Source of the DNA: Escherichia phage Turkey5
Sequence record: PQ471516.1
Strand: one strand, 5' to 3'
Length of the DNA: 64,000 bases
A model generated the notes under the pieces. The model did not search any database. It saw only the letters and a program-made list of their open reading frames with translations, and was not told the origin of the DNA. The first letter of the stretch is position 1. The number at the start of each line of letters is the position of its first letter. Below, piece by piece: positions 16,023 through 16,607 of the stretch. The position numbers and the translations under genes were made by a program.

Positions 16023-16607
16023 ATGCGTAACTATACTAAATTCATCCGTACACTTCATGCAATGGAAACTAATAAAGAGATCCTTACAGCTTGTCGGTTA
16101 GCTGGACTGGAGATCGTCGGTGCGGGTTCTTCCCGTATTGTATTCGCTTTGAATGATCGGTTAGTGATTAAGGTCGCAAATTGTGACGCTGGCGTTGAAC
16201 AAAATGAAACTGAATGTAAGGTATGGAATTTTTTAGATTATGACCGTCCACACCTTAAACAGTACTTTGCAAAGGTGCATATGCATTTATGCGATCCTGA
16301 TAATATGTTTATCGTTATGGATCGGTTGAGTACTGCAAGTAAAGGCAGTGTGAAGCACGTTAACGCGTGCAACGAATTAAAGTACAATATTAAACGTAAT
16401 GCTATTGAACGCCAGCACCGCTTTGCTGATGCTCTCAATCACGTTGATGATACATTATCAACACTAACAATCAGAGATATCAGAAAACAGAATATCGGCC
16501 AGGATCGTAATGGACTTATTAAAGTACTTGATTACGGTTTAACCCGCAATATCTGGAATCAGTACTATAAAAAACGTGATGTTAATGCGATAACTATAAC
16601 ACGATAA
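16023..16607 (+). CDS. miniature protein-kinase-like protein (194 aa)
   Basis: Ordered kinase motifs: Gly-rich loop 'VGAGSSRIVF', 'VIKVA' (beta3 Lys), catalytic-loop-like 'IRDIRKQNIG', 'KVLDYG' (DFG-like); RBS AAGGAGA. Confidence 0.55.
   Translation: MRNYTKFIRTLHAMETNKEILTACRLAGLEIVGAGSSRIVFALNDRLVIKVANCDAGVEQNETECKVWNFLDYDRPHLKQYFAKVHMHLCDPDNMFIVMDRLSTASKGSVKHVNACNELKYNIKRNAIERQHRFADALNHVDDTLSTLTIRDIRKQNIGQDRNGLIKVLDYGLTRNIWNQYYKKRDVNAITITR

Follow-up and report, generated by a model that had tools for sequence, protein, structure and literature searches.

A minimal protein-kinase-like gene in a promoter-rich region of Escherichia phage Turkey5, from a family distinct from the T7 gp0.7 kinase

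The DNA analysed in this work is a stretch of 64,000 nucleotides from Escherichia phage Turkey5 (sequence record PQ471516.1; the whole stretch is referred to below as the window), which comes from an Asteriusvirus jumbo phage of the PBECO4/121Q/Sharanji kind; the region has approximately 94% DNA identity to Asteriusvirus coliphages such as Ecwhy_1, G17, Sharanji, PBECO4, and 121Q. A short unit on the plus strand carries a small basic ORF followed by a gene for a protein-kinase-like protein of 194 amino acids (aa), and it is bounded on both sides by promoter cassettes. The features of the locus are as follows:

15681-15748, plus strand: promoter cassette and 5' leader, with TTGACA-17-TACTAT at 15691-15719 (promoter scan, 10/12 match)
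15749-15991, plus strand: 80-aa basic ORF, pI 9.7, directly 5' of the kinase gene (ORF list)
16009-16014, plus strand: ribosome-binding site AAGGAG, 8 nt 5' of the ATG of the kinase gene (direct sequence reading)
16023-16607, plus strand: minimal protein-kinase-like gene, 194 aa, 22.5 kDa, pI 9.3, phrog_4301
16606-16665, plus strand: hairpin and promoter cassette, ending the kinase unit and opening the next (terminator scan and promoter match)

In the ORF list the 194-aa frame opens with the ATG at 16023 and its stop codon ends at 16607; this start codon and the AAGGAG in front of it bear out the ORF proposed in an earlier, sequence-only reading of the same DNA. A longer frame starting from a TTG at 15966 was rejected, since all homologues begin at the position equivalent to the ATG. 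The gap between the 80-aa ORF and the kinase gene, which is the second gene of the unit, is 31 nt; the two are probably co-transcribed, and the cassette at 15681-15748 most likely drives both. An 88%-identical copy of this 68-nt cassette (15405-15472) is found ahead of the preceding gene (repeat family D10). At the distal end of the unit, the cassette at 16606-16665 contains a hairpin with a 12-bp stem (16619-16646), the boxes TTGACT (16626-16631) and TATTAT (16649-16654), and a TG before the -10 box; the hairpin, which is without a clear U-tract, presumably acts as a terminator. Further upstream on the plus strand, an 84-aa ORF (15164-15418) belongs to phrog_1525, and its homologues in related contigs are labelled ParE_like (PF24732); in one metagenomic phage (L013, 2745-2996) a phrog_1525 homologue lies 4 nt 5' of the kinase gene.

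The 80-aa ORF has no match in PHROG or Pfam. Homologues of it adjoin the kinase gene on the 5' side in Sharanji, vB_Ec-M-J, EJP2, Erwinia phage Hallingskeid, and Salmonella phage 7t3, and in one metagenomic contig the homologue is found one gene further away; none lies beside the kinase gene in RaK2, XbC2, and four other contigs. We regard the 80-aa ORF as a lead towards a functional partner of the kinase and as nothing beyond that.

Orthologues of the 194-aa protein (36-45% identity, 194-198 aa, motifs kept) were found in five phage genera, in Klebsiella phages RaK2 and K64-1, Xanthomonas phage XbC2, Erwinia phages Hallingskeid and Kaldavass, Salmonella phage 7t3, and Escherichia phage EJP2. 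In several records orthologues carry the names "serine/threonine-protein kinase PknA", "PRP4", "protein kinase domain-containing protein", and "putative protein kinase"; the PBECO4 orthologue is named as a kinase-domain protein in UniProt, and the Sharanji orthologue (WNN14351.1) is listed in the Sharanji paper as a further protein kinase of unknown function (PMC11895373). The kinase identification is therefore already present in databases and in one paper and is not new. What is new here is a family distinct from the T7 kinase (T7K) and without a Pfam model, its size and signature residues, the existence of tandem arrays, the location in the terminal repeat, and the partly conserved two-gene unit. 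An exhaustive profile search put the size of the family at no fewer than 2,065 cluster representatives with E<=1e-3; the stricter limit of E<=1e-10 retains 245 of them. We found no biochemical, transcriptomic, or proteomic report on the 194-aa protein or on family members in the literature, and the RaK2 and phAPEC6 papers, in which virion association was looked for, make no mention of the kinase orthologue. [quoted passage not shown]

The sequence-only reading had recognised four kinase motifs in the 194-aa ORF, and all four are present in the order and with the spacing that it gave. They are located on the plus strand as follows:

16116-16145, plus strand: Gly-rich loop VGAGSSRIVF, aa 32-41, aligning with IGKGSFGEVF of STK24/MST3
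16164-16214, plus strand: beta3 Lys50 in VIKVA (aa 48-52, 16164-16178) and the alphaC segment G57-x-x-Q60-N61-x-x-E64 (conservation, model)
16470-16499, plus strand: catalytic loop IRDIRKQNIG, aa 150-159 (Asp152, Asn157, Gly159), aligning with HRDIKPSNIL of MKK4
16530-16538, plus strand: DYG, aa 170-172, equivalent of the metal-binding DFG motif (alignment with DFG of MKK4/MST3)

Residue conservation was counted in 206 homologous domains from 177 proteins. Lys50 and Asp170 are invariant (206/206 each), and Glu64 and Gly172 are each present in 205 of the 206; the middle residue of the DYG motif is Y or F in 185/206. The Asp of the catalytic loop is found 7 or 8 residues ahead of the near-invariant Gly159 in about 200 of the 206 domains, the position of Asn157 varies across the family (N, H, S, or Q), and the family shows no conservation two positions past the catalytic Asp, where Ser/Thr kinases have a Lys. 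Four further residues are nearly as constant as the catalytic ones: Arg38 (203/206), Gly57 (202/206), Gln60 (203/206), and Asn61 (200/206). The last three are at the start of alphaC, and Arg38 occupies the position of the third Gly of GxGxxG in canonical kinases (alignment with MST3). In WNK kinases the catalytic Lys is found at this same Gly-loop position, and by this analogy Arg38 may contact the ATP phosphates. The 194-aa protein itself has all five of Lys50, Glu64, Asp152, Asn157, and Asp170, and the conservation has the pattern expected of active phosphotransferases and not of pseudokinases.

When searched alone against Pfam, the 194-aa sequence matched Pkinase at 17.9 bits (E=2e-3) over a collinear region, which is below the PF00069 gathering threshold of 31.7 bits. 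All of the 89 PDB sequence matches shown or counted at E<=10 for the single sequence are kinases. A profile made from 35 family sequences (alignment A2) matched 444 distinct PDB sequences at E<=1, with MKK4 as the best (E=1.4e-5); the best 60 of these 444 are all protein kinases, and the alignments are collinear through the Gly-loop, beta3, alphaC, hinge, catalytic loop, and DFG. Among 50 diverse homologues, Pkinase is the only recurrent Pfam family (4/50 at E<=0.01, best 5.7e-6), and neither APH nor RIO nor Kdo is the closest one. For the 194-aa protein, no match at E<=10 was obtained to the Pfam and NCBIfam models of APH, choline/ethanolamine kinase, Kdo kinase, and RIO/Bud32, and no profile search placed it confidently in an unrelated family.

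An AlphaFold2 model built on the 35-sequence alignment (pLDDT 94.2, pTM 0.90, all five models at 93.4 or above) has the two-lobed fold of a kinase, with a beta-sheet N-lobe bearing alphaC, a hinge, and a helical C-lobe bearing the catalytic loop. From the N-terminus, the predicted structure consists of two helices, a five-stranded N-lobe, alphaC (helix 55-73 spans the alphaC segment), hinge, alphaD, alphaE, catalytic loop, DYG, and one short helix (175-182), the sole helix after DYG. Foldseek matches of the model include OSR1, Legionella Lpg2603, MEK1, APH(2''), and Rio2; in the structure comparisons, protein kinases, APH(2''), and SAICAR synthetase came out best; APH(2'') and the tRNA kinase ArkI match the model as well as protein kinases do. 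The kinase interpretation of the sequence-only reading is supported by the matches to PDB kinases and by the invariant Lys50 and Asp170. The structure and profile comparisons that it had proposed gave neither of the two results named there as refuting it: the fold is confidently predicted to be bilobal, with protein kinases among its best Foldseek matches, and the profile searches led to no unrelated family. We conclude with high confidence that the 194-aa protein is a phosphotransferase of the kinase fold whose catalytic centre is intact.

The protein ends 22 residues after DYG, and the activation segment, the APE motif, the P+1 loop, alphaF with its conserved Asp, and alphaG to alphaI are absent. 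In metagenomic proteins, kinase modules of 160-200 aa are arranged head to tail, e.g., four copies within 923 aa in P0046 and three within 693 aa in P0044; since each of these tandem copies ends at the same point, the 194-aa protein represents an entire domain, not the product of a broken-off gene. Among metagenomic proteins (P0044, P0046, P0050, P0052, P0054, and P0059), the module is found in 2-4 tandem copies in single chains of 450-970 aa and also within giant ones of 2,130 and 3,248 aa, all of them lacking a name and a Pfam annotation. Many phage proteins of 140-230 aa in BFVD, annotated as kinases or uncharacterised, match the model. The earlier description of the gene as unusually small thus holds in comparison with canonical kinases, where the 22 residues after DYG are indeed exceptional, and fails in comparison with phage kinases, for which the size is typical because the kinase domain of T7 gp0.7 is similarly short and many of the model matches have 140-230 aa.

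The gene had also been described as sitting among early-promoter cassettes, and the promoter scan agrees with that setting. Near-consensus TTGACA-N16-18-TATAAT sites (at least 11/12) number 32 on the plus strand and 4 on the minus strand of the window, against 2.8 +/- 1.5 expected from Markov-simulated sequence, with those on the plus strand clustering in the interval from 4 to 20 kb. They form part of cassettes, 60-100 nt long and repeated, that are made up of promoter, leader hairpin, and ribosome-binding site. Two families of such cassettes are present in many copies ahead of successive small genes at 12248-19540 (for example, 13566-13647, 13925-14006, 14196-14277, and 17055-17136; further copies at 16736-16834, 17594-17692, and 19441-19539). 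Every copy combines a sigma-70 promoter that matches the consensus fully or nearly so with a start region of conserved sequence ("TTTACATCAAG"), a GC-rich hairpin in the leader (GGGGAGAAnnGTTCTCCCC), and a ribosome-binding site; the conservation of this hairpin suggests a shared post-transcriptional control. A different element, present in three copies between 12 and 21 kb (family D5; 13301-13402, 16606-16712, and 18867-18969), has a 12-bp hairpin whose 5' arm carries a TTGACT -35 box, followed by TGcTATTAT and then by 37 conserved nucleotides (…CCCAnAGGGTGCATAAnTGTATC…). In appearance the element joins a terminator to a promoter, and a small transcript may arise from it; Rfam and tRNA scans of the whole window, this element included, gave no match. 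Just past the promoter-dense zone, an 80-nt unit is perfectly duplicated in tandem (20194-20353), near the position of the terminal-repeat boundary of vB_Ec-M-J (21.5 kb).

In vB_Ec-M-J the orthologue (16,690-17,274) is located within the annotated direct terminal repeat of 21,525 bp. In fENko-Kae01 and Muenster it is within terminal repeats defined by PhageTerm, and genomes assembled with both repeats hold the orthologue twice. Given this location in the terminal repeat together with the host sigma-70 promoters, the kinase gene is probably among the first to enter the cell and to be expressed.

From these observations we infer an enzymatic activity, a protein substrate, an early timing, and a biological role for the 194-aa protein. 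In the explanation that we favour, with somewhat more confidence than doubt and largely by analogy, it is an early, host-transcribed, stand-alone minimal kinase that would phosphorylate host proteins in the service of takeover or counter-defence. The host sigma-70 RNA polymerase would transcribe the gene as the second one of the short unit, from a direct terminal repeat of about 21 kb that would place two copies in each packaged genome. The protein, catalytically competent on its own, would move the gamma-phosphate of ATP to Ser/Thr (possibly Tyr) residues of host proteins soon after infection. Its specificity would be low, as in T7 gp0.7, because there is no dedicated substrate-docking lobe. 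That so short a kinase can work is indicated by the T7 gp0.7 domain 1-242, which is active and ends 29 residues after Asp213. The purpose of the phosphorylation would be host takeover or the inactivation of defence proteins, a role proposed because of the analogy with T7K and JSS1_004. A point against this explanation is that the lineage already possesses a kinase of the T7 type, Sharanji gp144, beside which a redundant role is not obvious. Assignment to anti-phage defence kinases (PADLOC PD-T4-6, Stk2-like) was rejected: the best match to PD-T4-6 has E=2.5e-4 and covers the catalytic loop only. A defence-island context was likewise discarded, the actual setting being the early region of a lytic jumbo phage.

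Counted against a protein substrate are the missing parts with which canonical kinases hold one, all of which are absent here, and counted against the favoured explanation as a whole are the single-sequence score under the Pfam Pkinase threshold, the lack of conservation of the Lys at Asp+2, and the invariant Arg38, Gln60, and Asn61, for which it does not account. The main rival, which we consider unlikely, is that a kinase of the same fold acts on a non-protein substrate, i.e., a small molecule, lipid, nucleotide, or nucleic acid (for instance a metabolite of the host, a compound resembling an antibiotic, an alarmone, or tRNA). Non-protein substrates and similarly reduced C-lobes are found together in aminoglycoside phosphotransferases, in Kdo kinase, and in ArkI, a tRNA kinase of archaea. 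The ending of the 194-aa protein 22 residues after DYG, without the elements that bind protein substrates, and the absence of the Lys typical of Ser/Thr kinases would suit an enzyme of this sort; the three invariant residues could shape a pocket for a specific ligand, and the equally good structural matches to APH(2'') and ArkI point the same way. The sequence profiles, however, match eukaryotic-type protein kinases and not APH, choline-kinase, Kdo, or RIO, and the DYG/DFG motif retains its Gly as in protein kinases. In T7 gp0.7, an equally truncated layout goes with proven protein kinase activity, and no linked metabolic or modification genes were found in the 12 contexts examined. The phage 5-hmdU DNA kinase was considered as a model and set aside; the paper on it says nothing about its fold, and the linked modification genes described there are absent from all contexts examined. 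A wider reading, also unlikely in our judgement, takes the protein as one of a large family without a Pfam model (at least 2,065 cluster representatives) of self-contained kinase modules of about 170-190 aa, some in tandem arrays of two to four, with a Gly-loop Arg and G-x-x-Q-N-x-x-E as signature. Their chemistry or substrate would be unlike that of known phage kinases, the substrate being a non-protein one or the enzyme being completed by the 80-aa partner, and the protein would be a first-strike effector in the terminal repeat, beside the T7-type kinase.

A dependence on the 80-aa gene product also enters an explanation that we hold to be improbable, in which the protein is a regulatory kinase acting on the phage's own proteins or on that product, in an early-to-middle switch rather than in an attack on the host, with the small basic protein perhaps as a subunit that activates or targets it. 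A need for partner proteins is established for minimal kinases like Bud32, and the 80-aa ORF is kept 31-68 nt 5' of the kinase gene in Asteriusvirus, EJP2, Hallingskeid, and 7t3 despite kinase identities of only 36-45%. This pairing may, on the other hand, reflect a general synteny of the early region, in which many neighbouring genes are also common. RaK2, XbC2, and several metagenomic relatives keep the kinase without it, and in a distant relative the gene is in a structural module. A pseudokinase or ATP-binding scaffold (for nucleotide or host-protein binding), or a non-canonical reaction such as AMPylation, is very improbable. Such a reading could draw on the extreme truncation, the occurrence of His, Ser, or Gln instead of Asn157 in a large part of the broader family, and the sub-threshold Pfam score of the single sequence. 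It is opposed by the Lys-Glu pair, the catalytic Asp, and the Asp of DxG, which are kept almost without exception in the 206 domains, and by the five catalytic residues of the 194-aa protein, none of which is missing.

Phage kinases have recently risen from a curiosity to a recognised, broad counter-defence strategy through the mass phosphorylation brought about by T7 gp0.7 and JSS1_004. As the present gene shows, Asteriusvirus and RaK2-like jumbo phages have a minimal kinase additional and unrelated to the T7 type, encoded in the terminal repeat, which is probably the first DNA to reach the cell, and the family to which this kinase belongs comprises thousands of sequences without a Pfam model. 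If active, the 22-kDa protein would provide a natural kinase scaffold of very small size and a means of testing what share of the kinase fold is required for catalysis, and it would be a candidate to explain how these phages deal with the defences of their hosts; if inactive or redundant, it would be merely another annotated putative kinase.

Among known systems, the best profile matches of the family are eukaryotic-type Ser/Thr kinases (PF00069; MKK4, MST3/STK24, and PknB), which are collinear with it over subdomains I-VII and share the N-lobe, hinge, alphaD, alphaE, catalytic loop, and DFG-type motif. They differ in having subdomains VIII-XI (activation segment, APE, and alphaF-alphaI), which the 194-aa protein does not have, whereas the phrog_4301-type family has no His-Arg before the catalytic Asp and has an invariant Arg in place of the third Gly. 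The likeness to RIO2, APH(2''), Lpg2603, ArkI, and SAICAR synthetase is at the level of the fold only, with no Pfam-family sequence match at E<=10, and all of these keep extra C-terminal helices that are absent here. The kinase-like E. coli protein YrbL (PF10707, 210 aa) has a similar length and an Arg at the third-Gly position of the Gly-loop. One multi-domain homologue of the kinase family weakly matches PF10707; specific kinship with YrbL was rejected on the basis of hhalign values of E=0.23-0.52 and the absence of a PF10707 match of the 194-aa protein at E<=10.

Phage-encoded kinases that are early or first-entering, as is probably the case here, are represented by T7 gp0.7 (PHROG 2828, PF27024) and its relative JSS1_004. 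By phosphorylating promiscuously, both of these kinases inactivate several defence systems, and the purified T7 gp0.7 kinase domain, residues 1-242, is active (bioRxiv 10.1101/2024.12.20.629319). In T7 gp0.7 the Gly-loop is found at about residue 74, the catalytic loop is FDMHSGN, ITDP is at 211-214, and the kinase domain ends 29 residues after the metal-binding Asp213. Both proteins have N-terminal helices, a Gly-loop, a beta3 Lys, D-x-H/R-x-x-N, and, some 140 residues on from the Gly-loop, a metal-binding Asp with only 20-30 residues behind it, and T7-like kinases are among the structural matches of the model. Aligned family against family with hhalign, the catalytic residues correspond (K50=K93, D152=D195, N157=N200, and D170=D213 of T7 gp0.7; collinear, E=0.037). 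The three profile comparisons reached only E=0.017-0.037, so specific kinship was rejected and membership is not claimed. The 194-aa protein matches phrog_4301 ("unknown function") only, at E=7e-42, whereas T7K matches PHROGs 2828, 15752, and 18305; the precomputed PF27024 label is attached to 0/38 relatives of the 194-aa protein and to all listed T7K homologues. Judged by sequence family, the 194-aa protein is thus not a T7-type kinase. A T7-type kinase proper is found in Sharanji gp144 (WNN14432.1, 224 aa; phrog_15752 at 1e-97, BLASTP against T7K 4e-8), so that Asteriusvirus phages carry two unrelated minimal kinases. The gp144 gene (L012, 21183-21857) lies outside the window and its product is without the shut-off domain; HMM, BLASTP, and phmmer searches of the six-frame translation found no paralogue and no T7-type kinase within the window. 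Two differences set the 194-aa protein apart from T7 gp0.7 itself: its metal-binding motif is DYG instead of T-D-P, and it ends at residue 194 without the basic, DNA-binding "shut-off" domain that forms the C-terminal part of T7 gp0.7 (boundary at Q243).
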